A stretch of 64,000 nt of DNA from positions 69,076 to 133,075 of the forward strand of contig CAVSFK010000004.1 of the NCBI GenBank assembly GCA_963727275.1. The letters run 5' to 3'. This stretch comes from an uncultured Acidobacteriota bacterium. GTDB taxonomy: Bacteria > Acidobacteriota > Thermoanaerobaculia > Thermoanaerobaculales > Thermoanaerobaculaceae. Below the pieces are notes generated by a model that saw only the letters and a list, made by a program, of their open reading frames with translations, was not told the origin of the DNA and did not search any database. Below are positions 22,269 through 37,192 of this stretch, one piece after another; the first letter of the stretch is position 1, and each line of letters opens with the position of its first letter. A program made the position numbers and the translations under genes.

Positions 22269-25200
22269 ATGCGCGTTGATCGGATGCGAGTCGGGCTCGT
22301 CGGCTGGGCGCTCGTCCTGGCGGCAACCGCCGCCGGCGTCTCGGCGCAGACCAAGTTGCTCCGCTTCCCGGACATCCGGGGGGAGGAGGTCGCGTTCTGC
22401 TACGCGGGCGACCTCTGGCTCGCGCCGGCGGCGGGCGGCGCGGCCGCCCGGCTCACGGCCCACCCCGGCCTCGAGCTCTACCCCAAGTTCTCGCCGGACG
22501 GCAAGTGGATCGCGTTCACCGGCCAGTACGACGGTGACGAGCAGGTCTACGTGATCCCGGTGACCGGAGGCGCGCCGAAGCAGCTCACCTGGTACCCGGC
22601 GCGCGGCCCGCTGACGCCGCGCTGGGGGACCGACAACCAGGTCTACGGCTGGACCCCGGACGGCAAGGCCGTGCTCTTCCGCTCGCTGCGCGACGGCTGG
22701 GACCTCGGCGACTCGCGGCTGTACACCGTGTCCGATCGAAGGCGGCCTCCCGGTGCCGCTGCCGATGCCGCAGGCCGGCGCCGGCACGTTCTCCCCCGAC
22801 GGCGCCAGGGTGGCCTACTCGCCGCTGTTCCGCGACTTCAGGACCTGGAAGCGCTACCAGGGCGGGTGGGCCGAGGACCTCTGGGTGTTCGACCTCGCGA
22901 CGCACGCGACGTTCAACTTCACCGACAACCCGCGCACCGACCGCGACCCGATGTGGATCGGGGGCGCGATCTACTTCGCCTCCGACCGCGACGGCACGCT
23001 CAACCTCTACCGGTACGATCTCGCGAGCAAGGCGACCACCCAGCTGACGCACTCGACGACGTCCGACGTGCGCTGGCCGTCGGCCGACCGCGCCGGCCGC
23101 ATCGTCTACGAGCTCGGCGGCGAGCTGCACGTGTTCGAAACTGCGAGCCTCGCCGACCGCGCGATCTCGATCGCGGTGCCCAACGACGGCGTCGCGATGC
23201 GGCCGTCGCGGGTCTCGGCGGAGAAGCTCGTCGAAGACTTCTCGCTCGCGCCCAAGGGGGAGCGAGCCCTGTTCGTCGCGCGCGGCGACGTCTTCACGGT
23301 GCCGATCGAGAAGGGCCCCACCCGCAACCTCACCGACTCCTCGCGCTGGCACGACAAGTGGGCGCGCTGGTCGCCCGACGGCCGCCAGATCGCGTTCATC
23401 TCCGACCGCTCGGGCGAGGAGGAGGTCTGGCTCGTCGACCAGGACGGCTCCGGTTCGCCGCGTCAGCTCACCAAAGGCGGCCGCGCGATGCGCTACGCGC
23501 CGGAATGGTCGCCGGACGGCACGCACATCGCCTTCTCCGACAAGGACGGCCGCCTCTGGGTCGCGAGCGTCGCGGACGGCGCCCTCGTCGAGGCCGCCAA
23601 GGACCGTCGCGGCTCGCTCCGCGACTACGCGTGGTCGCCGGACGGCGCGTTCCTCGCGTTCTCGCTCGCCAACCCCAGCGGGTACCGCTCGATCGCGATC
23701 TGGGCGTTGCAGGACAAGGCCCTCCACGGCGTCACCGACGCGATGTTCAACGCCGTCCATCCGAGCTGGTCGCCGGACGGCCGATACCTGTACTTCCTCT
23801 CCGACCGCGAGTTCGCGCCGCAGCTCTCGACCGTCGAGTGGAGCTTCGCGACCAACCGTACGACCGGGATCTTCGCGCTCGCGCTCGCGAGCGACGCACC
23901 CAACCCGTTCCCGCCCGAGAGCGATGAGGTCAAGATCGAGATGCCCGGAGCGCCGGCGCCCGACGCCGCCAAGGAGAAGGGGACCGAGAAGAGCTCCGCG
24001 GTCGAAAAGCCCAAACCGGTGAAGATCGACTTCGAGGGGCTCGCGGAGCGTGTGGCGCGCGTGCCGGTGGAGGCCGACAACTATGCCGGGCTCGTCGCGA
24101 CCGGCGAGTACCTCGTCGCCCTGCGGACCGGCGCGCCGTACTACGGGCGCGAGGCGGAACCGGCGTCCTCGCTCGTGGTGTTCTCCCTGCACGATCGCAA
24201 GCTCACCACGCTCGTCGACGAAGCCGACGACTTCGCGCTCTCGCGCGACGGCCGCAAGGCGCTGGTCAAGAAGGACGGTGCCTACACGCTGGTCGACGTG
24301 GACCCCAAGTCCAAGGACAGCAAGGAGGCGAGGAAGCCCGTCTCGACGAAGGAGCTCTACGTCGACCGCGTCCCGGCCGAGGAGTGGGCCGAGATCTTCG
24401 ACGAGGTGTGGCGCCGGTATCGGGACTTCTTCTACGTCACCAACATGCACGGCTACGACTGGAGCGCGCTCGGGGCGCGGTACAGGGCGCTGCTGCCGTA
24501 CGTCGCGCATCGCTCCGACTTGAACTACGTCCTCGGCGAGATGGTGGCCGAGCTCAACATCGGGCACGCCTACATCGAGGGCGGCGACTTCGAGGTTCCG
24601 CCCCGCCCCAAGGTCGCGCTGCCGGGCGCCCGCTTCGAGCTCGACCGGACGTCGGGCCGCTACCGGATCGCGGAGATCCTCGCGGGCCAGAACGAGGAGG
24701 AGCGCTACCGCGCGCCGCTGACCGAGATCGGGGTGCACGCCAAGGTCGGCGACTACGTGCTCGCGGTGGACGGCGAGGACCTCAGGGGCACGGACAATCC
24801 GTACCGGTTGCTGCGCAACAAGGCGGACCGGCCCGTGACGCTGACGGTCAACGACTCTCCCGAGGCGAAGGGCGCGCGGACCGTGACCTTCAAGCCGGTC
24901 AGCAGCGAGGTCGAGCTCCGCTACCTGCAGTGGGTGGCGGGCAACCGAACGCGCGTGGACGCGCTGTCGGGCGGCCGAGTGGGCTACATCCACCTGCCCG
25001 ACATGGGGGAGGACGGGATCCGCGAGTTCATCAAGTGGTACTACCCGCAGCTCCGCAAGGAGGGACTCGTCGTCGACGACCGCCGCAACGGCGGCGGCAA
25101 CGTCTCGGCGATGCTGATCGACCGCCTCCGCCGTGCCCTACTGGGCACCGGTTTCTCGCGCACCAGCGAGGACACCGAGACGTACCCGCCGGCGACGTTC

Positions 25201-25581
25201 GTGGGGCCCATGGCGTGCCTGCTCAACGAGACCTCGGCCTCCGACGGCGACATCTTTCCCTACATGTTCCGCCAGGCCGGCCTCGGCCCGCTGATCGGCA
25301 AGCGCTCTTGGGGCGGCGTCGTCGGGATCGACGACCACGGGCCGCTCGTCGACGGTGGCGCCGTCTTCGTGCCCGAGAGCGGCACGGCCTCCGCGGAGGG
25401 GGCGTGGATCATCGAGGGGCACGGCGTCGCCCCGGACATCGTCGTGGAGAACGATCCGGCCTCGGTGCTCGCCGGGCGCGACCCGCAGCTCGAGCGCGCG
25501 GTCGCCGAAGTGATGAAGGCCATCGCGGCGGGCGGGAAGAAGCTGCCGGCGCGGCCGCCCGATCCGGTCAAGACGAAGTGA
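22269..25581 (+). pseudogene. tricorn-type protease homolog (S41 family with beta-propellers and PDZ), interrupted by a +1 frameshift at about 22734
   Basis: The N-terminal ORF (22269..) gives signal peptide + [23 protein letters not shown]...SRLYTVS. It then continues in another frame as [23 protein letters not shown]... to 25581 (ORF 22753-25581). The junction reads gtg tcc G atc gaa. Total length is 3313 nt = 3n+1. This may be a sequencing error. Confidence 0.85.
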
Positions 25582-25657
25582 GGGGCGCCGGAACGTCGCC
25601 GGGCATGCGGCCGTCGGCCGGCCCAGGCGCGGCCGAGCTGCGCTAGGATCGTTCGAG

Positions 25658-27304
25658 ATGCCCGAGCGGGAGCGGCGCTGGAACGGGTGGGGCTTCACCG
25701 ACGAGCGCGTCCCCGTGCCCGAGCCGGCACGCGCCTGGCTCGGAGTCCGGCTCGGCGCCGGTGACCCGTTGCCGGCCGTGCGCGAGGACGAGGTTTCGAT
25801 CCCGCCGCCGCGACCGCTGCCGTCGTTCGCGGCAACGACCCTGACCGACGCGCCGGTGCGCCTGCGCCACGCCTGCGGCATGTCGTTCCCGGACCTCGTG
25901 GCGCTGCGCAGCGGAACGGTCGCGGCTTGCCCGGACGCCGTCTGCTTCCCGGCCGACGCCGAGGAGGTGGCCGGGCTCCTGCGGACCGCGGCCCGGTCGG
26001 GGCTCGCCGTGATCCCGTGGGGCGGCGGCACCAGCGTGGTCGGCGGCGTGACCGTGTCCGCGGGGGGCCCGCCGACCGTCGTGCTCGCGCTGGATCGTCT
26101 GCGGGGGCTCGCCGCGCTCGACGCGCCCTCACAGCTCGCGACGTTCCGCGCCGGCACGTTGGGGCCCGAGGTGGAGGCGGCGCTCGCACCGCACGGGCTG
26201 CGCCTCGGCCACGAGCCGCAGTCGTTCGAGCTGTCCACCGTGGGCGGCTGGGTGGCGACGCGCTCGGCGGGCCACCGTTCGACCGGGATCGGCAAGATCG
26301 ACGACCTTGCGGCGGGGTTCGAGCTCGCGACCCCCCGCGGGCCGTGGCGGCTCCCGGCCCGGCCGGCGTCGGCCGCCGGCCCGGAGCTGCGCCGGCTCGT
26401 GATCGGCAGCGAGGGGCGGCTTGGCGTGATCACCGAGGTGACGCTGCGGGTCCGTCCCCAGCCCGAGCACCGCGACGGCGTCGCCGTGCTGCTCCCGGGT
26501 TGGGCCGCCGGCGTCGACGTGTGCCGGCAGCTGGTGCAGAACGGTCCGGTGCCCGAGATGCTACGGCTGTCCGACGTCGAGGAGACCGCGTTCGGGTTCG
26601 CGCTCGTCGAGCTTCCCCGGCTGTCGGCGGGAGCCCGGGACGTGCTTCTCCGCCTGCGCCGGTTCCGCCACCCTTGTCTGCTCCTCGCTGAATGGGACGG
26701 AGGCGCCCAGGAGGTCACGCTCGCGCGCCAGGCGGCCGCGCGCGCGTGGCGGGAGGCCGGCGGGCTCGCGCTCGGCCGCTCGGGGTGGCGGCGCTGGCTC
26801 GCCGAGCGGTTTCGCCAGCCGTACCTGCGCGACTCGCTGCTCTCGGCCGGCTGGGGTGTCGACACGCTGGAGACCGCGACGACGTGGACGAACGTCGCCG
26901 AACTGCACGTCGCCGTTCGCGAGGCGATCCTTGCCGCAGGGACCGCCGGCGGCTTCGCGGCGGTCACGCTGTGCCACATCTCGCACGCCTATACGGACGG
27001 CGCCTCGCTCTACTTCACGTTCCTGTGGCCGCTCGCCAAGGGGCGGGAACTGACCCAGTGGCGCGCGCTCAAGAGCGCGGCGACGGAGGCGCTGCTGGAT
27101 CACGGCGGGACGCTCACCCATCACCACGGGGTCGGGACGATGCACGCGGCCTACCTGGAACGCGAGAACGGGCGGGAGGGCGTGGCGGCGTTGCGGGCCC
27201 TGGCCGCGGCCTTCGATCCTGAGGGCGTGCTCAACCCGGGCGTGTTGCTGCCGGCAACGGTTCGCGGCGAGTCGCCGCCGGCGGGCGGCGGGAGGGCGGC
27301 GTAG
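25658..27304 (+). CDS. FAD-linked oxidase, alkyl-dihydroxyacetonephosphate synthase (AGPS)-like
   Basis: N-terminal RRWNGWGF motif typical of AGPS, FAD-binding PCMH-type segment VIPWGGGTSVVGG, and C-terminal HHHGVG. Confidence 0.75.
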   Translation: MPERERRWNGWGFTDERVPVPEPARAWLGVRLGAGDPLPAVREDEVSIPPPRPLPSFAATTLTDAPVRLRHACGMSFPDLVALRSGTVAACPDAVCFPADAEEVAGLLRTAARSGLAVIPWGGGTSVVGGVTVSAGGPPTVVLALDRLRGLAALDAPSQLATFRAGTLGPEVEAALAPHGLRLGHEPQSFELSTVGGWVATRSAGHRSTGIGKIDDLAAGFELATPRGPWRLPARPASAAGPELRRLVIGSEGRLGVITEVTLRVRPQPEHRDGVAVLLPGWAAGVDVCRQLVQNGPVPEMLRLSDVEETAFGFALVELPRLSAGARDVLLRLRRFRHPCLLLAEWDGGAQEVTLARQAAARAWREAGGLALGRSGWRRWLAERFRQPYLRDSLLSAGWGVDTLETATTWTNVAELHVAVREAILAAGTAGGFAAVTLCHISHAYTDGASLYFTFLWPLAKGRELTQWRALKSAATEALLDHGGTLTHHHGVGTMHAAYLERENGREGVAALRALAAAFDPEGVLNPGVLLPATVRGESPPAGGGRAA

Positions 27305-28917
27305 TGTTCCCCCCGGGCTGGCGGGAGCGCGCCTGGGAGCGGCTCGGGGCGCCGCTCGACATCCTGGTGATCGGAGGCGGGATCACCGGCGCCGGGATCC
27401 TGCACGACGCGGCGCTGCGCGGCCTCTCGGTGGCGCTGGTGGAAAAGGGCGACTTCGGTTCCGCGACCTCGTCGCGGTCCTCCAAGCTGATCCACGGCGG
27501 GCTGCGCTACCTGCGCCGCATGCAACTGGGGATCACGCGCACGGCGTGCCGGGAGCGCGACCTGCTGGCCATGACCAACCCGCACCTGGTCTGGCCCGTG
27601 CGCTTCCTGTACCCGTCGTACGACGACGACATCACGCCGGGGTGGCAGGTGGACCTCGGCCTTTCGATGTACGACCACCTCACCCCTGTGCGCCACCACC
27701 ACGAGCGGGTGGATGCCGCGACGGCGACCGGTCTGGTGCCGCTGCTCGCCCGCGACGGACTCGGCTTCGGCCTGCTCTACGACGACGCGGTCGCCGACGA
27801 CGCGCGGCTCGTTCTCGCGGCCGTCGCGGCCGGGGTGCTCGCCGGCGGCGTGGCGGTCAGCTACGCCCGCGTCGATGAGCTGCTCGAAGGGGCGGGAGGC
27901 CGGATCGTCGGCGCGCGCGTGTCCGACCTGGAGACGGGCCGGGTTCACGAGGTGCGCGCCTCGGTGGTGGTCAACGCGACCGGGGTGTGGGCCGACGAGG
28001 TCCGATCGCTGGCCCGCGAGCTCAAGCCCCGGCTGCGCCCGTCGCGCGGGGCGCACGTGCTGTTCCCCCGCACCCGGCTGCCGCTCGACGTGGCGGTCAC
28101 CTCGCTCTCCCCGGACGACGGCCGGCCCGTCTTCGCGGTGCCGCACCCGGAAGGCACCCTCGTCGGAACGACCGACGTCTTTCACGACGGTCCGCTCGAC
28201 GATCCGCGCCCGACGGCGGAGGAGACCGCCTATCTCCTGCGCGCCGCCGCGCACGTGTTCCCGTCGGCCGGCTTGACGGCCGCGGACGTCTGCGGCGCGT
28301 TCGCCGGGGTGCGCCCGGTGCTCTCGAGCCGGGCGGCAACCCCCTCCGAGGCGTCCCGGGAAGAGGCGGTGTGGCGGGAGCGGGGGCTCGTGTCCACCGC
28401 GGGTGGCAAGTTGACGACGTTCCGCGCCACGGCCGAGAAAGTGGTCGACGTCGCGCTGGCGCTCCTGCCGGAGGAACGCCGGGACGGCGCCGGCCCGCCT
28501 CAAACCGAAGCCGTCGCCCTGCCCTGGCGGTGCGACCCGACCGCGACCGTGGCCGCATTGACCGGATCGGGCGTGACGGAGGCGGTCGCCGGCGGCCTGG
28601 TCCGCCGTCTGGGCGCGCTCGCCCTGCCGGCGGCGGTCTCCGCGCCCGATGCGTTGCGGCCGCTCGCCGACGGGCTCGACCTCTGCGGGGCCGAGCTCCT
28701 CTGGCAGCTCCGGGTCGGCGGGGTCGTCCACCTCGAGGACCTCGTGCTGCGCCGGGTGCGCCTGGGGATGTGGCAACCCCGGCGTTGCATGGAGCTGGCG
28801 CCGCGTTTGCGGCCGTTGCTCAGGCGTGCGGCCGGCTGGTCGGTCGCGCGCTGGAACGCGGAGCTCGCCCGCCTCGACCGCGCCGTCGGCAACTGGCTGC
28901 CCCCGGAGGGGCGATGA
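27304..28917 (+). CDS. glpD: FAD-dependent glycerol-3-phosphate dehydrogenase/oxidase
   Basis: DILVIGGGITGAGIL dinucleotide fold, followed by GDFGSATSSRSSKLIHGGLRYL (GlpD hallmark). The GTG start overlaps the preceding TAG. Confidence 0.85.
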   Translation: MFPPGWRERAWERLGAPLDILVIGGGITGAGILHDAALRGLSVALVEKGDFGSATSSRSSKLIHGGLRYLRRMQLGITRTACRERDLLAMTNPHLVWPVRFLYPSYDDDITPGWQVDLGLSMYDHLTPVRHHHERVDAATATGLVPLLARDGLGFGLLYDDAVADDARLVLAAVAAGVLAGGVAVSYARVDELLEGAGGRIVGARVSDLETGRVHEVRASVVVNATGVWADEVRSLARELKPRLRPSRGAHVLFPRTRLPLDVAVTSLSPDDGRPVFAVPHPEGTLVGTTDVFHDGPLDDPRPTAEETAYLLRAAAHVFPSAGLTAADVCGAFAGVRPVLSSRAATPSEASREEAVWRERGLVSTAGGKLTTFRATAEKVVDVALALLPEERRDGAGPPQTEAVALPWRCDPTATVAALTGSGVTEAVAGGLVRRLGALALPAAVSAPDALRPLADGLDLCGAELLWQLRVGGVVHLEDLVLRRVRLGMWQPRRCMELAPRLRPLLRRAAGWSVARWNAELARLDRAVGNWLPPEGR

Positions 28918-29822
28918 GCGGGACCGTGGTGCTCGTGAACCCGGCCGCGGGCGGCGGTCGCGCCGGCGGACTGTGGGCGCGCGTGCGGACCGCGGCGGAG
29001 AGGCTCGCCGCGGTGCGGGTCGTCACGCCGGGGAGCGCCGACGCCTCGCGCCTGGCCGTCCGCGAAGCGGTCGCGGCCGGGTGCGACCGCGTGGTGGCGG
29101 TCGGCGGCGACGGGACCACGCACCTGGTGGCCAACGCGCTCCTCGACGCGAACGCGACCGCGGTCACCCTCGGCATCGTGCCGGCGGGGACCGGCTCCGA
29201 CCTGGCGCGCTCGCTCTCGATCCCGCACGACCCGGATCGAGCGCTGCGCCGGGCGCTATTGGGTGCGCCGACGGCGGTCGACGCGGGGCGTTGCGTCGGC
29301 CCCGCCGGCAGCTTCGCCTTCGTCAACATCGCCTCGGCGGGGATATCGGGGATGGTCGACGAGGCCGTCAACGCGCGTCCGGAGCGCGGGCGCACCGCCT
29401 TCCTTCGCGCCACGCTGGCCGCGCTGCGCCGCTACGCCTGCGTCCCGGTCCGCGTTTCGGCGGACGGCGCGCCGTTCTTCGAAGGGCCGCTGTTCCTGCT
29501 CGCCGTCGCCAACGGGACCACGTTCGGGAAGGGGATGCGCATCGCGCCGACGGCGGTCGTCGACGACGGTCTCTTCGACGTGGTGGCCGTGGCCGAGATC
29601 GCCGGTCCGGAACTGCTCCTGCGGCTGCCGCAGGTCTACCTCGGCCGCCACATGCGCGCCCGGCCCGTTTCCTGGCGCCGGGCCAGGGAGCTTCGCATCG
29701 AGCCGGCCGCGCCGTTGCCCCCATTCGACGTCGACGGCGAGACGTACCCGTCCGGCGCGGCCACGTTCACCGTGCTGCCCGGGGCGCTCCGCGTCGCCGG
29801 GCCGGTCGCCGACGGCGACTGA
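28914..29822 (+). CDS. diacylglycerol/lipid kinase family protein (YegS/BmrU-like)
   Basis: VVLVNPAAGGGRA and VVAVGGDGTTHLVANAL motifs. ATGA overlap with glpD. Confidence 0.8.
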   Translation: MSGTVVLVNPAAGGGRAGGLWARVRTAAERLAAVRVVTPGSADASRLAVREAVAAGCDRVVAVGGDGTTHLVANALLDANATAVTLGIVPAGTGSDLARSLSIPHDPDRALRRALLGAPTAVDAGRCVGPAGSFAFVNIASAGISGMVDEAVNARPERGRTAFLRATLAALRRYACVPVRVSADGAPFFEGPLFLLAVANGTTFGKGMRIAPTAVVDDGLFDVVAVAEIAGPELLLRLPQVYLGRHMRARPVSWRRARELRIEPAAPLPPFDVDGETYPSGAATFTVLPGALRVAGPVADGD

Positions 29823-29940
29823 GCCCCGCGCGGTCCCGGCGGCGCTTCCGGGTCGCGATCCGCGGGCGGCGCGGGACGGGCGCCCTCGGTCGGTCCCGGC
29901 AGGCTTGACCGGGCGGGGGCAACACCGCACACTTCGGGCG

Positions 29941-31221
29941 ATGAAGCCGCTCGTGCTGATCGTCGACGACGAGCCGGGGATCCTGACCGAGCTGTCGCAC
30001 ATCCTCGAGGACGAGGGGTTTCGCACCTTGACCACCGGCCGCGGCGAGGAAGCGCTCCAGCTCTACCGCAGCCGCCGGCCCACCGTGGTCTTCCTCGACA
30101 TCTGGCTGCCGGACCGCGACGGCCTGGAGACGCTGCGGGCGCTCCGCGAGATCGACCCCGCGGCCGCCGTGATCATGATCTCGGGGCACGGGACCGCACC
30201 CACGGCGGTCACGGCGATCAAGATGGGCGCCTACGACTACCTGGAGAAACCGCTCGCCTACAGCCGGGTCCTGGAGGCGTTGACCGGTGCGCTGGCCAGC
30301 AAGGGCGCCGGCGCGGCCCAGCTCGATCTCGGCAAGGGGCCCGAGCCCGCCCGCCAGTTCCTGCCGCCGCCGGAGCTTCCCCTGCTGCGTGTAAGCTCGA
30401 CGCCGCAGCGGACGATCGGGTCGAGCACGGTGATCTACGGGCTCGGGCTGCACTCGGGCCGCCGCACCGGGATGGCGATGCTGCCCCTGCCGCCGAACAG
30501 CGGCGTCCACTTCCTGACGCTGCCCAAGGGTACCCAGATCCCGGCCCACCTCGGGTCGGTGGCCGAGACCGAATACGCGACGACGCTTTCGCGCGACGGC
30601 GAGAGCATACGCACGGTCGAGCACCTGCTCGCCGCCCTGCACGCCTGCGGGATCACCAACCTGCTCGTCAAGGTGCACGGCGAGATCCCGGTCCTCGACG
30701 GCTCCGCGCTCGCCTTCTGCGAGCGCCTGGAGGAGATCGGCATCGAGGATCAGGACGCGCCGCGCAAGGAGCTCGTCATCGACCGCCGGTACGAGCTCGA
30801 CGGGAGCGGCGGCAAGAGCCTCGTAGTGGAGCCGGCCGAGGTCCTCTCGGTCGCCTACCGGCTCCGCTACCCGCCGCCCGTGGGCGAGCAGTTCTACGAC
30901 TTCACGCTCTCGAGCTTCGCCGCGTTCAAGGCGGATATCGCCCCCGCGCGTACGTTCGGGTTCATGCGCGACCTGCCGATGATGGCGGAGCTCGGGCTCG
31001 GCTCGGGGGGCCGCCTCGACAACTGCATCCTGATCGGGGAGGACAACGTCATCAACACCGAGCTCCGTTTCCCCGACGAGTTCGTCCGCCACAAGATCCT
31101 GGACGTCATCGGCGACCTCTACCTGCTCGGCTACCCGATCCGCGGTCGGGTCACGGCGTGCCTCACCGGCCACCGCGACAACATCGCCGTCCAGCGGAAG
31201 ATCCTCGCCGCGGCGAGCTGA
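29941..31221 (+). CDS. lpxC: response-regulator receiver domain fused to UDP-3-O-acyl-N-acetylglucosamine deacetylase
   Basis: REC features at aa 1 to about 120: LIVDDEPGI, VVFLDIWLPDRDG, MISGHG, YLEKP. LpxC features from about aa 150 to 426: GLGLHSGR, TVEHLLAAL, LDGSA, ARTFGFMRD, FPDEFVRHKILDVIGDLYLLG, TGHRDN. Confidence 0.85.
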   Translation: MKPLVLIVDDEPGILTELSHILEDEGFRTLTTGRGEEALQLYRSRRPTVVFLDIWLPDRDGLETLRALREIDPAAAVIMISGHGTAPTAVTAIKMGAYDYLEKPLAYSRVLEALTGALASKGAGAAQLDLGKGPEPARQFLPPPELPLLRVSSTPQRTIGSSTVIYGLGLHSGRRTGMAMLPLPPNSGVHFLTLPKGTQIPAHLGSVAETEYATTLSRDGESIRTVEHLLAALHACGITNLLVKVHGEIPVLDGSALAFCERLEEIGIEDQDAPRKELVIDRRYELDGSGGKSLVVEPAEVLSVAYRLRYPPPVGEQFYDFTLSSFAAFKADIAPARTFGFMRDLPMMAELGLGSGGRLDNCILIGEDNVINTELRFPDEFVRHKILDVIGDLYLLGYPIRGRVTACLTGHRDNIAVQRKILAAAS

Positions 31222-31367
31222 CCGCGGCCGCCCCCGATCCGCCCTCCGGCTCGCCTCTTGTGTGCCGCGCCCGGGGAGGAATAGACTCGCTTGCCCCCGC
31301 ACGCGGGGCGACGCGAGGCGGATTTCCCAAAAATCTCGAAACCGACGACGAAAGGGGACGACACGCA

Positions 31368-32492
31368 ATGGCGGACAAGAAGGCGGACCTGGCGGGACCC
31401 GGCATCAGCACCTACGAGGAGGTCGACAAGGTCCTTCCTAGCGACTACAGCTCGATCCTGACCCCGAAAGAGACGCAGATCGCGATCACCTCGATCAAGC
31501 GGTACATCGAGGACGGCCTCTGCCGGGAACTCAACCTGTTCCGGGTCGAGGTCCCGCTCATCGTCAGCAAGGAGAGCGGCGTCAACGACTATCTCGACCG
31601 CGACGGATCTCGGACGCCGATCGAGTTCCCCTGCGGGCTCGGCCTCCCGAAGCGCATCGACACCCAGGTCGTGCAGGCGGCCACCAAGTGGAAGAGGATG
31701 GCCTTGAAGGAATTCGGCTGCAACGTCGGGGAAGGGATCGTCACCGACATGCGCGCCGTTCGCAAGGACTACTTCCTCGACCACGACCACTCCGCGTACG
31801 TCGATCAGTGGGACTGGGAAAGGGTGATGACGCCGGAGCAGCGCAACCTCGAGTTCCTCAAGGACGTCGTGAAGAGGATCTGGAAAGTGCTGCGCGGCGC
31901 GCAGGCGCACGCGTACGAGCTCTTCCCCAAGCTCAAGGGCCGCTACCCGGAGGTGCCCGACGAGCTCAAGTTCCTCCACGCGGAAGAGATCCTCGAGATG
32001 TACCCGGAGCTTCCCCGCAAGCAGAGGGAGACGCAGATCCTGCAGCGCTACCCCGCCGTCTTCATCATCGGGATCGGGTGGGTGCTCGCGGACGGCTACC
32101 CGCACGAGATGCGAGCCGCGGACTACGACGACTGGGTGACGGACACCTCGGGCGAGACGGGCAAATCGACGCACGGCCTCAACGGCGACATCCTGGTGTG
32201 GAACCCGGTCACCAAGCGCCGCCACGAGCTGTCCTCGATGGGCATCCGCGTCACCAAGGGCACGCTGAAGACCCAGCTGGAGCTCTCGAGCCAGCTCGAC
32301 TTCCTCAAGCTGCCGTACCACAAGGCGATCCTCAACGACGAGATCCCGCTCTCCGTCGGCGGCGGCATCGGGCAGTCGCGCACGCTCATGTACCTGCTCA
32401 AGAAGGCCCACCTGGGCGAGGTGAGCGTCACCGTGTGGCCGAGGCAGCTCAAGGAGATCTGCGCGCGGAAGAACATCCACGTGCTGGAGTGA
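31368..32492 (+). CDS. asnA: aspartate--ammonia ligase (asparagine synthetase A)
   Basis: YVDQWDWERVM, LNGDILVWNPV, ELSSMGIRV and GGGIGQSR motifs. Confidence 0.92.
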   Translation: MADKKADLAGPGISTYEEVDKVLPSDYSSILTPKETQIAITSIKRYIEDGLCRELNLFRVEVPLIVSKESGVNDYLDRDGSRTPIEFPCGLGLPKRIDTQVVQAATKWKRMALKEFGCNVGEGIVTDMRAVRKDYFLDHDHSAYVDQWDWERVMTPEQRNLEFLKDVVKRIWKVLRGAQAHAYELFPKLKGRYPEVPDELKFLHAEEILEMYPELPRKQRETQILQRYPAVFIIGIGWVLADGYPHEMRAADYDDWVTDTSGETGKSTHGLNGDILVWNPVTKRRHELSSMGIRVTKGTLKTQLELSSQLDFLKLPYHKAILNDEIPLSVGGGIGQSRTLMYLLKKAHLGEVSVTVWPRQLKEICARKNIHVLE

Positions 32493-33725: not shown

Positions 33726-35102
33726 GTGGCCTCGTATGTCGCAGAGCCGGCCATCCCGGTCGCGAGCGTGGAGCAGCCTCAGACCCTGACCGTGGGCCGG
33801 ATCTTCCGGTTCTGGGCGCCGCTGGCGGCGACCTGGCTGATGATGTCGATCGAGGGGCCGTTCCTGGCGGCCGTGATCGCGCGGCTCGGCCAGGCCAAGT
33901 TCAACCTGGCGGCGTTCGGGGTGGCGTTCTCGTTCGCGATGCTCAACGAGGCGCCGATCATCATGATGATGAGCGCCAGCGTCGCGCTCGTCAGCGACCG
34001 CCAGTCGTTCCTCGCCCTGCGCCGGTTCGCCTACACCCTCAACGCCGTCATCACGCTCGTGATGGGCCTCGTCCTCGTGCCGCCGGTCTTCGGGTTCCTC
34101 GCCGAACGCCTCATCGGCCTCCCGCACGAGGTCGCCGCCCTCACCCACGTCGCGACGGCGATCCTCGTCCCCTGGCCGGCCGCAATCGGCTACCGCCGCT
34201 TCTACCAGGGGATTCTCATCCGCGCCAACCTGACCCGGCGCGTGGCCTACGGGACGGTGGTCCGTGTGCTGGCGATGGCGATCACGGCCATCGCGCTGTA
34301 CGCCAGCACGTCGATCCCGGGCGCCTTCGTCGGGGCGGCCGCGCTCTCCGCCGGCGTGACTGCGGAGGCGGTGGCGAGCCGGTTCATGGCGCGGGCGTCC
34401 GTGCGGCGCCTCCTCGCCGACGCCGAACCGCGGCCGGCCGTCGGGCCGCTGACGACGCCGGCGATCCTCAGCCTTTACGCGCCGCTCGCCCTCACCTCGA
34501 TGCTCACGCTGGGCGTCAACCCCCTGGTCACGTTCTTCCTCGGGCGCGGCCGCGCCGCCCTCGACTCGCTCGCGATCTGGCCGGTCGTCGCGTCCATGGT
34601 GTTCGTGTTCCGCAGCGGCGGCGTCGCCTACCAGGAGGTGGGGATTGCCCTTCTCGGCGACGACCGCCGCGGCTTCGCCGCCTTACGCCGCTTCGCCGGG
34701 CTGCTCGCCCTCGGCACGGCCGGCGCGCTCGCGGTCGTGGCGTTCTCACCGCTCGCCTCGTGGTGGCTGTCCGTGGTCTCCGGGCTGTCGAGGGAGCTGA
34801 GCAGGTTCGCGCTCACCCCGCTGCGGGTCCTGGCCATCATGCCGGCCCTCGAGGTGCTGCTCTCGTTCCAACGCTCGCTCCTGGTGCACGCGCGCCAGAC
34901 GGCGCGGATCACCTGGGCGACCGCCGTGGAGGTGAGCGGCATCATCGCGGTCCTCGCGGTGGGGGTGGCGGCGTTCGACGCCGTCGGCGCCGTCGCCGCC
35001 GCCGTCGCGATCCTGGTCGGCCGCGTCGCCGCCAACGCCCTCCTGAGCCGGCACGCACCGGGGCCCGGTGCGGTCCGCGCGAGCGGGGTGGCTAGCGGGT
35101 GA
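33726..35102 (+). CDS. polytopic membrane protein, MOP/MATE-flippase-like
   Basis: About 12 hydrophobic helices with two-fold internal symmetry. The start is uncertain; GTG at 33726 or 33768 are candidates. Confidence 0.55.
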   Translation: MASYVAEPAIPVASVEQPQTLTVGRIFRFWAPLAATWLMMSIEGPFLAAVIARLGQAKFNLAAFGVAFSFAMLNEAPIIMMMSASVALVSDRQSFLALRRFAYTLNAVITLVMGLVLVPPVFGFLAERLIGLPHEVAALTHVATAILVPWPAAIGYRRFYQGILIRANLTRRVAYGTVVRVLAMAITAIALYASTSIPGAFVGAAALSAGVTAEAVASRFMARASVRRLLADAEPRPAVGPLTTPAILSLYAPLALTSMLTLGVNPLVTFFLGRGRAALDSLAIWPVVASMVFVFRSGGVAYQEVGIALLGDDRRGFAALRRFAGLLALGTAGALAVVAFSPLASWWLSVVSGLSRELSRFALTPLRVLAIMPALEVLLSFQRSLLVHARQTARITWATAVEVSGIIAVLAVGVAAFDAVGAVAAAVAILVGRVAANALLSRHAPGPGAVRASGVASG

Positions 35103-37192
35103 GGCGCGGGAGGTGTCGGCGGGGGGCGCGCGCCACGTCGAACCGGATCACCGCCGCGCCGCCGGGCCGGCCGTCCCCGCTCGGCAATGCGCCGGGGTCG
35201 TCGGCCGTGCGGACCTCGCCGTCGAGCGGTTGGACCGAGGCGGCGTCCACGACCGTGTCGGCGATCGTCAGCGTGTAGCGGTCGGGCGCCAACGGGTGGG
35301 CCGGCGTGAGCGTGGCCGTCGCGCCGCCGCGGTCGTACGCGAACGCACACGGCACGGGACCGACGGTCGCGCCCGCGAGCCAATAGTCGGCCGCGCGCGT
35401 GACAACGTCCTCCTGGAAGACGACTCGGACCGCCGCGACGAACGCCGACGGCACGCGGGCGCCGGGAGCAGGGTCGGTCGCCACGACGCGAGGCGGACCG
35501 AGGGCGAACGCCGCCGCCGTCACGTCGCTCGCCAGCACCCAGCCGCCGGGGTCGAGCGCGACCGCATCGACGCGCCCGGCGGCGGGGAGGAGGAAGTGCT
35601 GCGTGCGGGCGACGTTCCAGATCACGTGGGTGGCGTCGCGGTCGCCCGAGGTCACACGGACGTCGATCGGCATCGCGAACGTGGGCCAACCGGTGTCCTG
35701 GGTCTGGGCCACGGACAGCTCGACCCAGTCCCTTCCGCCGGCGGTCGTCTCGCGCCAGCCGAAACGGTAGGATGGCGCTCCGATCCCGTAGAGCCAGGGG
35801 TCGAAGAACCAGACCAGGCTGCTCCCGTAGGACGTCTCGGCCACGGTGCGGAAGTCCTCGGTGGTGGCGGCGGCGTAGGCGTAGAGGTTCCTGTAGGCCG
35901 CGAGCGTCGCGAAGAAGCGTTCGTCCCCCAGCACGTGCCGCAGCATGTGCAGCACCCATCCGGCCTTGAGGTAGCTGAAGTCCTTGGAGAAGATGCGGCT
36001 TTCGCTGCCGACGTCGTCCACGTACACGCTGCCGTCGACCCGCTGCGGCCGCCGGGCCGCCATCGCCCCGGCGAGGGCCTGCGCGCCGTCGCCGCCTGCC
36101 TGACGTTCGAGCCAGAGCGCCTCCGAGTAGGTCGCGAACCCCTCGTTGAGCCAGACGTCGTGCCAGGTGGCGCAGGTCACGAGGTCGCCCCACCACTGGT
36201 GCGAGAGCTCGTGGGCGGTGAGCGCCTCGTCGAAGCGTCCCTGGCCCGTCATCGTCTGGTGCTCCATCCCCCCGGGGAAACCGAACTCGTAGATGCCGTA
36301 CTTCTCCTCGGCAAACGGGTAGGCGCCGAAAAGCGTCGAGAATGCGTCGAGCATGGAGAGGCTCTCGAGCCAGCGGTCCCGGTTGGACGGGGTGTCGTGC
36401 TCCGGGAAGATGAAGAACTCGACGGGGGTCGGAATGCCCACCGTGCCACCACGTAGCGGAGAACGTCCGGTAGTCGGTCGCCGAGAAGCACAGCAGGTAC
36501 GGCGCCGTCGGGTAGCGGGTCGTCCAGCGGAAGCGCGTGCGGCCGCCGCCGGCCGCTTCGGGCGGCGCCGCGACCCCGTTGGCCGCGACGGACATTCCGG
36601 CGGGGACCGTGATCGCCAGCGCCGCGGTCGCCTTGTCGCCGTTGTCGTCCTTGGCGGGCCACCAGGTGTACGCGTACCACGGCTCGGAGAGCGTCCACAC
36701 CAGCGGGGCGCCGCCGCGGCTCGCGAACGTGATCCCCCCGAACCCGCCCGCCGACGGGTAGCCGTCGTACGCGACCTCGAGGACGAACTCGGCGCCGGAG
36801 GCGACCGGCCTGGGCAACCCGACCTCGACCGTCGTGTCGTCCAGCCGGCGCCAGCTCGCGGGGGCGCCGTCCGCGAGCAGCTCGCTGATCCGGAAGCGAC
36901 CCGAGAGGCGCAGCCGGAACGCCGTCACCCCGTCCTTCACCGCGCGCACGCGAATCGTGTTGCGCCCGCCGAGCCATCCCGACGACGGTCGAATCTCGAT
37001 CTCGAGGTCGTAGTGCTGGACGTCGGCGTCGCCGGCGGTCGGGTCCGGCGCGAGGTCGCGAGCGGCGGCCCGACTGCGGCAGGAAGCGAGCGCCGCGCGC
37101 CCGCGGGCGCACGCGCCGACCGAGTCGTCGTCCGTGGGCGGCGCCGCCGCCAACGGTGGCACGACCGCCGCGAGGAGGAGCGCCGCGATCAC
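35092..37192 (-). pseudogene. M1-family zinc aminopeptidase, secreted, interrupted by a frameshift at about 36438
   Basis: The N-terminal part (37192 down to about 36440) reads MIAALLLAAV..WYAYTWWPAKDDNGDKAT..FSATWWHGG. It continues in another frame as (V)GIPTPVEFFIFPEHD...GGMEHQTM...HELSHQWWGDLVT...WLNEGFATY (ORF 35092-36441). Length is 2101 nt = 3n+1. Confidence 0.85.

Follow-up and report, generated by a model that had tools for sequence, protein, structure and literature searches.

An AGPS-family flavoenzyme gene coupled to a glpD and a lipid kinase gene in Thermoanaerobaculales: a plausible, non-classical sn-1 ether-bond module

Organization of the operon

The operon is located within a stretch of 64,000 nucleotides (the window) from an uncultured acidobacterium of the Thermoanaerobaculaceae and comprises three genes preceded by a short leader (positions are those of the window):

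25582-25657, forward strand: leader of 76 nt between a tricorn-protease gene and gene 1, presumably containing the operon promoter
25658-27304, forward strand: gene 1, AGPS-family flavoenzyme of 548 aa, GlpD-linked 'Rv2251-type' subfamily
27302-27306, forward strand: TAGTG, one-base overlap of the gene 1 stop with the GTG start of gene 2
27304-28917, forward strand: gene 2, GlpD-type FAD-dependent glycerol-3-phosphate dehydrogenase of 537 aa
28914-28917, forward strand: ATGA, overlap of the gene 3 start with the gene 2 stop
28914-29822, forward strand: gene 3, YegS/Rv2252/BmrU-family lipid kinase of 302 aa

Both overlaps can be read directly from the sequence: the TAG stop codon of gene 1 (27302-27304) shares one base with the GTG start codon of gene 2 (27304-27306), and the TGA stop codon of gene 2 (28915-28917) lies within the ATGA whose ATG, at 28914, starts gene 3. 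Shine-Dalgarno-like sequences occur upstream of the starts of gene 2 (GGGAGGG, 27290-27296) and gene 3 (GGAGG, 28905-28909), and the ATG of gene 1 is preceded by AGGA some 11-14 nt upstream. A scan of 25300-30200 for sigma-70 and terminator consensus sequences gave no match. The G+C content at the third codon position is at least 0.9 in exactly the three gene frames, with frame changes at ~27300 and ~28900, indicating that the three open reading frames are coding and do not represent chance frames of DNA with 72% G+C. The overlapping start of gene 2 is supported by the GlpD proteins of relatives, which align from residue 1 of the GTG-started product. When genus- and family-level relatives were fetched with long flanks, the trio was found intact and equally compact in all ten. 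The three genes are intact and form a translationally coupled operon, which represents a conserved orphan module in Thermoanaerobaculales. Both overlaps claimed in a preliminary description of the locus are confirmed by the sequence.

Gene 1 encodes a member of the AGPS family

The gene 1 protein starts with MPERERRWNGWGF and carries, at residues 6-13, the RRWNGWGF motif from which it had earlier been proposed to be AGPS-like. It consists of the Pfam domains FAD_binding_4 (PF01565) and FAD-oxidase_C (PF02913). Sequence searches against the PDB yielded AGPS structures (2uuu, E 6.6e-82; 4bby, E 4e-62), while GlcD/Dld proteins were matched at ~1e-24, and the best 37 Foldseek matches of the AF2 model (pLDDT 88.9) were all AGPS (TM 0.80-0.87). 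In the tree, the AGPS superfamily including gene 1 is split from GlcD-like proteins at 100/100. Identification of gene 1 as a GlcD/D-lactate dehydrogenase is thus ruled out, and its membership of the AGPS family, for which phylogeny had been named as a test, stands.

With AGPS/ADPS (EC 2.5.1.26; Dictyostelium 2uuu, guinea pig 4bby, M. xanthus MXAN_1676) the protein shares the same two Pfam domains and 28-32% full-length identity, the WNGWG-bearing N-terminal extension and, of the catalytic residues, Arg (R419), Tyr (Y578) and the HHH loop. The corresponding residues of gene 1 are R303 (26564-26566), Y452 (27011-27013) and H488-H490 (27119-27127), the former two aligning with the sites mutated in PDB 4bc7 (Arg419His) and 4bca (Tyr578Phe). 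In the same comparison, Q188 occupies the column of the canonical Asp303.

Gene 1 is positioned outside the clade of proven AGPS, in a separate GlpD-linked subfamily that it shares with Rv2251-type proteins of mycobacteria (97/98). AGPS of eukaryotes, in contrast, clusters with bacterial genes that have an SDR and a PF01553 acyltransferase as neighbors (100/98). Such canonical-type clusters (SDR, PF01553 acyltransferase, AGPS) are present in Brachybacterium, Microlunatus, Propionibacteriaceae, Solirubrobacteraceae and an Acidobacteriaceae MAG; their AGPS has an N-terminal extension and shares its catalytic residues with gene 1, but the loci provide the acyltransferase and reductase of the classical pathway and lack GlpD or a kinase. 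Similarly, the myxobacterial AGPS operon encodes FAR-GNPAT and an NAD-epimerase-type protein, whereas the neighbors of gene 1 are GlpD and a lipid kinase.

Gene 2 belongs to an AGPS-linked group of GlpD proteins

Gene 2 (Pfam DAO and DAO_C; best PDB match 3da1, E 5e-80, also 2rgh and 2qcu) is a glycerol-3-phosphate dehydrogenase of the GlpD type, as previously assigned. It retains all residues conserved in stand-alone GlpDs, and a comparison of these positions revealed no active-site change hinting at a lipid substrate. As the only GlpD homologue of the genome (sole tblastn match), in which no glycerol kinase is recognizable, its role is not ordinary glycerol catabolism.

Among 201 sampled Acidobacteriota, the 11 best GlpD matches are all preceded, at a distance of 8-30 nt, by an AGPS-like gene, and two genomes of this sample have a second, stand-alone GlpD. 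GlpD adjoins the AGPS-like gene in every genus-level relative and at six of eight order-level loci, and the GlpD tree is congruent with that of the AGPS-like proteins, down to a group that spans phyla (Acidimicrobiaceae, Anaerolineae and Thermoanaerobaculales). Gene 2 belongs to an AGPS-linked orthologous GlpD group, and there is a functional link between it and gene 1.

Gene 3 and the same module in other bacteria

The assignment of gene 3 to the YegS/DAG-kinase family was confirmed by its Pfam domains (DAGK_cat and YegS_C) and PDB matches (YegS 2p1r, E 7e-21; also DgkB 2qv7). The GGDGT motif is formed by residues 64-68, and all scores against NCBIfam lipid-kinase models were slightly under the cut-offs. 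A kinase gene follows GlpD in 10/10 close relatives and also at loci L016 and L018; in most sister-family genomes it is not beside the AGPS-like/GlpD pair, which was counted against the reading favored below. The invariant core of the module is an AGPS-family flavoenzyme with its own GlpD, often joined by a lipid kinase.

AGPS-like, GlpD and kinase families are also clustered in Mycobacterium, Nocardia, Rhodococcus, Kitasatospora and Saprospiraceae. The kinases that occur with the pair are of two unrelated types (DAGK-type and FGGY), the FGGY kinases accompanying a related short AGPS-like clade. The gene set is widespread and the operon is not new, as the module is known from Mycobacterium and Pseudomonas. 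In M. tuberculosis and M. bovis BCG, the three enzyme families lie together in the cluster Rv2249c (glpD1), Rv2250c (regulator), Rv2251 (flavoprotein) and Rv2252 (diacylglycerol kinase), and the four genes of this cluster are co-regulated in M. bovis BCG. Rv2252 is reportedly a proven DAG kinase. In the tree, the sister clade of the gene 1 protein is made up of the AGPS-like proteins from Mycobacterium, Nocardia and Rhodococcus loci (97/98), and identity between the two systems is ~41-44%. In Mycobacteriales, however, GlpD and the regulator are divergently transcribed, whereas here three co-directional genes overlap and no regulator is included. Ether glycerolipids are not known to be prominent in either mycobacteria or Pseudomonas, both of which carry the module; this was also counted against the favored reading.

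The GliR regulon of P. aeruginosa includes an operon of PA3026 (FAD oxidoreductase), PA3025 (GlpD homologue), PA3024 (FGGY kinase) and PA3023 (YegS lipid kinase), for which a 'glycerol to alkylglycerone phosphate' role has already been proposed (Kotecka et al., 2021; PMC8151288). The AGPS-like tree was built without PA3026, and the likeness to the present operon is one of gene families and order (oxidase, GlpD, kinase). Unlike the operon here, that of P. aeruginosa also encodes an FGGY kinase, is controlled by an AraC activator and shows more than 40-fold induction alongside a phospholipase C; its deletion caused no phenotype under the conditions tested (PMC8151288), a further point against the favored reading.

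Partners of the classical ether-lipid pathway

The preliminary description had noted the lack of an acyltransferase or reductase at the locus, which is correct, and a survey of the genome also did not identify a dedicated DHAP acyltransferase or acyl/alkyl-DHAP reductase. The acyltransferases of the genome are generic PlsC-like proteins, ~30% identical to AGPS-linked ones. No strong PF07993 (fatty acyl reductase) domain is present in this genome, while 4 of 41 relatives have one, and ElbD and Ger/PlsA are not recognizable. An AGPS-like gene occurs in 34 of these 41 relatives, 30 of which have no convincing fatty acyl reductase. In this lineage the module belongs to the core genes, and its loci contain no regulator or transporter.

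Possible function of the module

The module most likely performs AGPS-type chemistry on a DHAP-level glycerolipid. In favor of this are the AGPS-family membership of gene 1, its link to GlpD, the recurrence of the three families in other bacteria, a GlpD outside ordinary glycerol catabolism and the core status of the module in the lineage. We favor a module acting on sn-1 ether bonds (probability about 0.55); that its physiological role concerns sn-1 exchange on such a lipid at all appears somewhat better than an even chance. As its homology and complete set of motifs suggest, GlpD would bring a glycerol-3-phosphate head to the keto (DHAP) level by oxidation at the sn-2 hydroxyl. From its Arg/Tyr/HHH set and AGPS fold, the AGPS-like enzyme may bind a 1-O-substituted DHAP (acyl- or alkyl-DHAP); Tyr-assisted enolization would then lead to a covalent flavin-N5 adduct, from which the sn-1 substituent leaves and is replaced. 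The YegS-type kinase, by its family, would phosphorylate mono- or di-radylglycerol into or back to the phosphorylated pool. Also counted against the favored reading were the lack of a long-chain alcohol source and of the classical partners, the ordinary appearance of GlpD, the position of gene 1 outside the proven AGPS clade and its Asp303 to Gln change. DHAP is also supplied by glycolysis, which weakens the rationale for a dedicated GlpD.

[quoted passage not shown] In that scheme, DHAP would come from GlpD and be acylated by a housekeeping acyltransferase encoded elsewhere; the AGPS-like enzyme would then exchange the acyl group of acyl-DHAP for a fatty alcohol, a reductase, likewise unlinked, would provide the membrane lipids with 1-alkyl-G3P, and alkyl-acyl-glycerol would be recycled by the kinase. 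Gene 1 with its complete AGPS catalytic residues and fold, the complete catalytic set of GlpD and the place of the module among the core genes of the taxonomic order, without regulator or transporter, are in line with this scheme, as are the contribution of M. xanthus AGPS to ether lipids and the agps homologues noted in ether-lipid-producing Acidobacteria. However, the genome lacks FAR and ElbD, as do most AGPS-positive relatives with respect to FAR, only generic acyltransferases are available, and the subfamily differs from the proven AGPS clade with its acyltransferase and SDR neighbors.

Somewhat less probable still is a salvage or breakdown of glycerol ethers or lyso-lipids, in which the kinase phosphorylates 1-O-alkyl (acyl) glycerol, the GlpD paralogue converts it to alkyl/acyl-DHAP and the AGPS-like half-reaction runs backwards to free the alcohol (or acid) and DHAP, an oxygen-independent ether cleavage. 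This would account for the recurrence of kinase, dehydrogenase and AGPS-like enzyme without GNPAT, FAR or reductase, for the recruitment of two unrelated kinase types to the pair and for an orthologous AGPS-linked GlpD group at times found beside a second GlpD; the AraC activator and phospholipase C co-induction in P. aeruginosa (PMC8151288) and the divergent regulator adjoining the mycobacterial module also fit. Yet the conserved GlpD residues are unchanged, the module here belongs to the core genes and has no regulator or transporter, the kinase is not always adjacent, and the reverse AGPS reaction is not an established one. The least probable explanation, a small non-lipid 1-substituted DHAP or related ketol phosphate as substrate, with GlpD merely supplying or consuming DHAP/G3P and the family resemblance misleading, would agree with the distinct subfamily and its Asp-to-Gln change, the soluble FGGY sugar-type kinases of the related short clade and the lipid-pathway partners missing from the genome, but gene 3 encodes a kinase of the lipid rather than the sugar type, and gene 1 has kept the AGPS fold over its full length, N-terminal domain included.

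Of the earlier proposal of an ether-lipid module, the AGPS-like, GlpD and kinase identities stand, whereas gene 1 does not fall among proven AGPS, a convincing FAR is lacking and the module is not new. Since the subfamily lies outside proven AGPS, the partners are missing and the module has already been described, ether-lipid production by the module is plausible but unproven, and the module is not the classical ether-lipid pathway. Within the favored sn-1 exchange, synthesis or remodeling towards ether lipid is slightly more likely here than cleavage or salvage, because in this taxonomic order the module belongs to the core genes and lacks a regulator. The module would allow the sn-1 ether bond of glycerolipids to be made or broken without GNPAT, FAR or an acyl/alkyl-DHAP reductase.

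Organization of the operon and its surroundings

The preliminary description had proposed a tightly coupled operon as a candidate ether-lipid module, and its three genes and their overlaps all matched our reading of the sequence:

Open reading frames of the operon
25658-27304, + strand: gene 1, AGPS-like flavoenzyme, 548 aa, N-terminus MPERERRWNGWGF...
27304-28917, + strand: gene 2, GlpD, 537 aa, GTG start
28914-29822, + strand: gene 3, YegS-type lipid kinase, 302 aa

Genes 1 and 2 meet at ...GCG TAG TG..., preceded by GGGAGGG, and genes 2 and 3 at ...GGCG ATG A..., preceded by GGAGG. In a frame plot, a third-position G+C of at least 0.9 tracks the three genes and moves to the next frame near 27300 and near 28900, so the ORFs are coding and not spurious ones as are common in DNA of 72% G+C. 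Pfam assigned FAD_binding_4 and FAD-oxidase_C to gene 1, DAO and DAO_C to gene 2, and DAGK_cat and YegS_C to gene 3, while all three genes score below the NCBIfam equivalog cut-offs.

The window lies on contig C4 (positions 69076-133075) of a genome of 4.47 Mb in 12 contigs (70% G+C, 94.8% complete). An actinobacterial origin, suggested by the 72% G+C, was rejected, because an LpxC gene close by and the names of the closest homologues (Thermoanaerobaculaceae/Acidobacteriota) assign the DNA to Thermoanaerobaculaceae-like Acidobacteriota. The trio is flanked upstream by genes for an HlyIII-family protein and a tricorn-type protease, and downstream by a receiver-domain-LpxC fusion, with an AsnA-like gene after it. 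In 10/10 genus- and family-level relatives, all three genes are complete and just as tightly packed; there, the upstream gene is either tricorn or HlyIII, the LpxC fusion occurs 1.1-3.1 kb beyond the trio and the other downstream content varies. The operon therefore consists of three genes only. The receiver-LpxC gene was considered as a further member and rejected, given the variable gap in the relatives and a promoter-like stretch of its own. A consensus scan of 25300-30200 found no promoter or terminator.

Several features of the surrounding DNA were recorded in addition. By Pfam, the gene at 29941-31221 joins a response-regulator receiver domain to a complete LpxC domain, and the promoter-like stretch TTGACC...CACACT is located at about 29905-29935. 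The tricorn-type protease (22269-25581) is spread over two frames: the ORF from 22269 has a PD40 repeat and coding-type third-position G+C until about 22650, after which the signal is found in the frame of the 22753-25581 ORF with its PD40, Tricorn_C1, PDZ and S41 domains. An indel of one base or a misassembly is the probable cause of this split. An M1 aminopeptidase region (35092-37192), in which the coding-frame signal shifts at about 36440 in the frame plot, is the second frame-disturbed protease in the window; the trio genes are intact. The AsnA-type aspartate-ammonia ligase gene (31158-32492) lies in a stretch with a G+C of 0.65 versus about 0.72 and a very low second-position G+C and could be a foreign acquisition; its ORF start as listed overlaps the end of LpxC, and the real start is probably further on.

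Gene 1 is a member of the AGPS family

Gene 1 contains a PCMH-type FAD-binding domain (PF01565, E 5e-29) and an FAD-oxidase C-terminal domain (PF02913, E 9e-40). In a phmmer search of PDB sequences, its best match was Dictyostelium AGPS (2uuu, E 6.6e-82, aligned over 36-530), followed by the guinea pig enzyme (4bby, 4e-62), whereas glycolate oxidase (GlcD) and D-lactate dehydrogenase (Dld) reached only about 1e-24. Both structures have KWNGWG where gene 1 has RRWNGWGF (residues 6-13); an N-terminal [KR]xW(N/W)(G/A)WG motif occurs in all N-extended clades of the tree described below and is missing from GlcD-like proteins. In alignments with the two solved AGPS and the relatives, R303, R391, Y452 and H488-H490 are invariant. 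R303, Y452 and H488-490 correspond to the catalytic Arg419, Tyr578 and His615-617 of the guinea pig enzyme, and the PDB mutants 4bc7 (Arg419His) and 4bca (Tyr578Phe) depart from the wild type at the R303 and Y452 columns. At the R303, Y452 and H488-490 columns, the GlcD-like paralogues encoded in this genome carry Glu, His and Gly-Glu-His, respectively.

The AlphaFold2 model of gene 1 (pLDDT 88.9, pTM 0.88) led to the same family. In a Foldseek search, ranks 1-37 were all AGPS chains, matched over the full length (E 2e-48 to 5e-41, TM 0.74-0.87), and D-lactate dehydrogenases came after them (4e-27, TM about 0.68). Sequence, catalytic residues and predicted fold are thus all closest to AGPS, as had been proposed from the N-terminal motif, and show a true AGPS-family protein with an intact catalytic apparatus.

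Bacterial AGPS proteins form two subfamilies with different gene neighbourhoods

Relatives were collected from one genome per species, their neighbour genes were called, and a quick and a careful tree were calculated (support given as ultrafast bootstrap/SH-aLRT). Four GlcD-like FAD oxidase paralogues, which lie within 14 kb on contig C3 of the same genome (C3:23060-37310), served as outgroup. Gene 1 did not cluster with glycolate or D-lactate oxidases, as the AGPS superfamily is split from GlcD-like proteins at 100/100. The N-extended proteins (98/100) fall into three groups, canonical, stand-alone and GlpD-linked. Shorter proteins that lack the N-terminal extension make up a fourth clade, which is accompanied by GlpD, FGGY kinases and GlcF-like proteins.

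The canonical clade (100/98) holds Dictyostelium and guinea pig AGPS together with bacterial genes, which in Brachybacterium, Microlunatus, Propionibacteriaceae and Solirubrobacteraceae immediately follow an SDR gene and a PF01553 acyltransferase gene. These are the partners that the classical pathway requires. Five actinomycetotal loci (L041, L044, L045, L047 and L055) have such compact SDR/PF01553 acyltransferase/AGPS clusters with an AGPS that groups with the eukaryotic enzymes. Actinomycetota such as Brachybacterium and Microlunatus hold, in this cluster, a full set of ether-lipid genes of the classical type. At a canonical-clade locus in an Acidobacteriaceae MAG (L038), the acyltransferase alone stands beside AGPS, with no SDR. 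The AGPS on a 3.1-kb contig of a Gemmatimonadales MAG (L063, 133-1638) is sister to guinea pig AGPS at 100/100 on a long shared branch; either a bacterium has gained an animal-like AGPS, or the contig is eukaryotic and was wrongly binned with the MAG.

The stand-alone clade (100/100) includes proteins of Streptomyces, Micromonospora and Burkholderiales. The window's protein belongs to the GlpD-linked clade (97/98) with all those of Thermoanaerobaculales and of one Acidimicrobiaceae and one Anaerolineae locus, in which AGPS and GlpD are co-directional; at these two loci (L023 and L027, respectively), the catalytic loop has HQH in place of HHH, and YT replaces the YF that follows the catalytic Tyr. 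The clade also takes in proteins of Mycobacterium, Nocardia, Rhodococcus, Kitasatospora and Frankiaceae. The majority of the latter loci have a divergent GlpD and regulator upstream of the AGPS-like gene and a lipid kinase downstream. One column follows the grouping: at the position of guinea pig Asp303, an active-site residue that contacts ligand or inhibitor, Gln occurs throughout the GlpD-linked and stand-alone clades (Q188 in gene 1) and Asp throughout the canonical and eukaryotic proteins. Assignment of gene 1 to AGPS thus holds at the level of the family, but the protein is placed outside the clade of biochemically proven enzymes (97/98 versus 100/98).

Bacteria hold two AGPS subfamilies with mutually exclusive neighbourhoods, a eukaryotic-like one with acyltransferase and SDR and an Rv2251-like one with GlpD and kinase. 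This division is new and the main contribution of the analysis. Since the two subfamilies are distinct, genome surveys that equate every 'agps' match with ether-lipid capacity need caution.

The AGPS-like gene and GlpD are inherited as a unit

Gene 2 was confirmed as a glycerol-3-phosphate dehydrogenase by its DAO and C-terminal domains (PF01266, E 6e-55; PF16901, E 2e-8) and about 45% identity to Bacillus halodurans GlpD (3da1, E 5e-80). Within HGGxRYL, GxH, TTD, GxRP and GGKxT, it also keeps every position with a conservation of at least 85% among 18 stand-alone GlpDs. Its score against NF008899 (271.6 bits) is under the cut-off of 360. By homology, gene 2 would oxidise a glycerol-3-phosphate head group. 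No other GlpD homologue occurs in the genome, and no match to glycerol kinase (TIGR01311) was found in it, the control being positive in 11/14 genomes; therefore, gene 2 stands outside a GlpK-GlpD glycerol route.

In an even sample of 201 Acidobacteriota, an AGPS-family gene occurs in 16 genomes and a GlpD in 73. The 11 GlpDs closest to gene 2 (43-52% identity) each start 8-30 nt after an AGPS-like gene, and the stand-alone GlpDs are 29-41% identical to it; two genomes (G026 and G050) have both kinds. The GlpD tree mirrors the AGPS-like tree, down to the cross-phylum group (99) in which the Acidimicrobiaceae and Anaerolineae loci join Thermoanaerobaculales. Because the trees agree, the pair is taken to be inherited and transferred as a unit, which is strong evidence for a shared function. 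In a comparison for specificity-determining positions, no conserved motif residue differed in AGPS-linked GlpDs; only the peripheral positions 78, 92 and 155 did, so that a lipid-bound substrate of GlpD is neither supported nor excluded.

The lipid kinase is a frequent addition

Gene 3 belongs to the YegS/Rv2252/BmrU family of lipid kinases, in line with the preliminary description. It has both domains (PF00781, E 1e-26; the YegS_C beta-sandwich PF19279, E 1e-34), the GGDGT motif at residues 64-68, and YegS (2p1r, 7e-21) and DgkB as best PDB matches; with 115.2 bits it lies just below the TIGR00147 cut-off of 118.65. A paralogue of 37% identity is encoded on contig C7 of the same genome. Every close relative, loci L016 and L018 and a Saprospiraceae locus have the kinase gene right after GlpD, but it is not next to the pair in most sister-family genomes. 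As the kinase is not always adjacent, the invariant core of the module is AGPS-like gene plus GlpD. Co-inheritance of the kinase is not addressed by the lipid-kinase tree, as its deep nodes lack support.

Partners of the classical ether-lipid pathway are not recognised

A survey of the genome agreed with the absence of an acyltransferase or reductase from the operon, as no dedicated partner was recognised. Fatty acyl reductase/ElbD (PF07993) gave weak partial matches only (best E 6e-11); among the relatives, PF07993 reached E 1e-15 or better in 9/41 and was strong in 4/41, versus an AGPS-like gene in 34/41. The three PF01553 acyltransferases of the genome are at best about 30% identical to AGPS-linked ones and are generic PlsC-like enzymes. 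No SDR is linked to the trio. Ger/PlsA (PF09989) is absent from the genome, with a working Thermotoga control, and PEDS1/CarF (PF10520) had no match, but here no positive control responded anywhere. From the PF07993, PF01553 and PF09989 results, enzymes for acyl-DHAP, long-chain alcohol and alkyl-DHAP reduction are not recognisable. A fully classical pathway would have to rely on partners that are both unlinked and unrecognised, and we consider it rather unlikely.

Known counterparts and possible function of the module

The trio is a further copy of a known conserved module. In M. tuberculosis/BCG, expression of Rv2249c (glpD1), Rv2250c (regulator), Rv2251 (flavoprotein) and Rv2252 (diacylglycerol kinase) shifts together. 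In P. aeruginosa, GliR induces PA3026 (FAD oxidoreductase), PA3025 (GlpD), PA3024 (FGGY kinase) and PA3023 (YegS kinase) more than 40-fold, and phospholipase C alongside them (Kotecka et al., 2021; PMC8151288). A glycerol-to-alkylglycerone-phosphate reading was already proposed for that operon, the deletion of which had no phenotype (PMC8151288). As in both species, the window's AGPS-like gene adjoins its own GlpD, with a kinase nearby; unlike Rv2249c-Rv2252, no dedicated divergent regulator flanks the window's operon. The module is widely conserved, in Thermoanaerobaculales, Mycobacteriales, Saprospiraceae, Anaerolineae and Pseudomonas. The M. xanthus AGPS, MXAN_1676, shares its operon with a FAR-GNPAT fusion and a protein of the NAD-epimerase type and accounts for a minor share of the ether lipids. 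Homologues of agps are also known in Acidobacteria, but without a tie to their ether lipids, and no data on the lipid composition of Thermoanaerobaculum were found in the papers and supplements consulted.

The proposed ether-lipid module therefore stands as to its operon, AGPS family, GlpD and kinase, but not as to the proven AGPS clade and the classical partners. We slightly favour, with a probability of about 0.55, that the module acts in sn-1 exchange on DHAP-level glycerolipids. Gene 1 would swap the sn-1 substituent by AGPS-type covalent-flavin chemistry, GlpD would supply the keto level of its substrate, and the kinase may feed or recycle radylglycerols. Given such a role, we lean slightly towards synthesis or remodelling of ether bonds in the Thermoanaerobaculales lineage, because the module is part of the core gene set there and has no regulator. 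That it salvages or cleaves existing glycerol ethers or lyso-lipids is unlikely, and a non-lipid substrate of the AGPS-like enzyme is quite improbable.

Bacterial ether-lipid routes described so far are ElbD, Ger/PlsA and the myxobacterial AGPS operon. To our knowledge, bacterial synthesis is only partly understood and an anaerobic route of breakdown is essentially unknown. As the lineage has no other recognisable ether-lipid gene or glycerol kinase, the window's copy is a clean case, free of redundancy that would mask its function. More tentatively, and with considerable doubt, the AGPS-like/GlpD pair, together with the kinase, might form a self-contained, O2-independent route without GNPAT or FAR that adds or removes the sn-1 ether bond on pre-formed glycerolipids. 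The kinase would act first, the dedicated GlpD paralogue would then oxidise 1-radyl-glycerol-3-phosphate, and the AGPS-like flavoenzyme would finally exchange or cleave the sn-1 substituent. If true, such a route would comprise two new enzyme activities and would provide the missing ether-lipid gene marker for Thermoanaerobaculia, many Actinomycetota, including mycobacteria, and other phyla.
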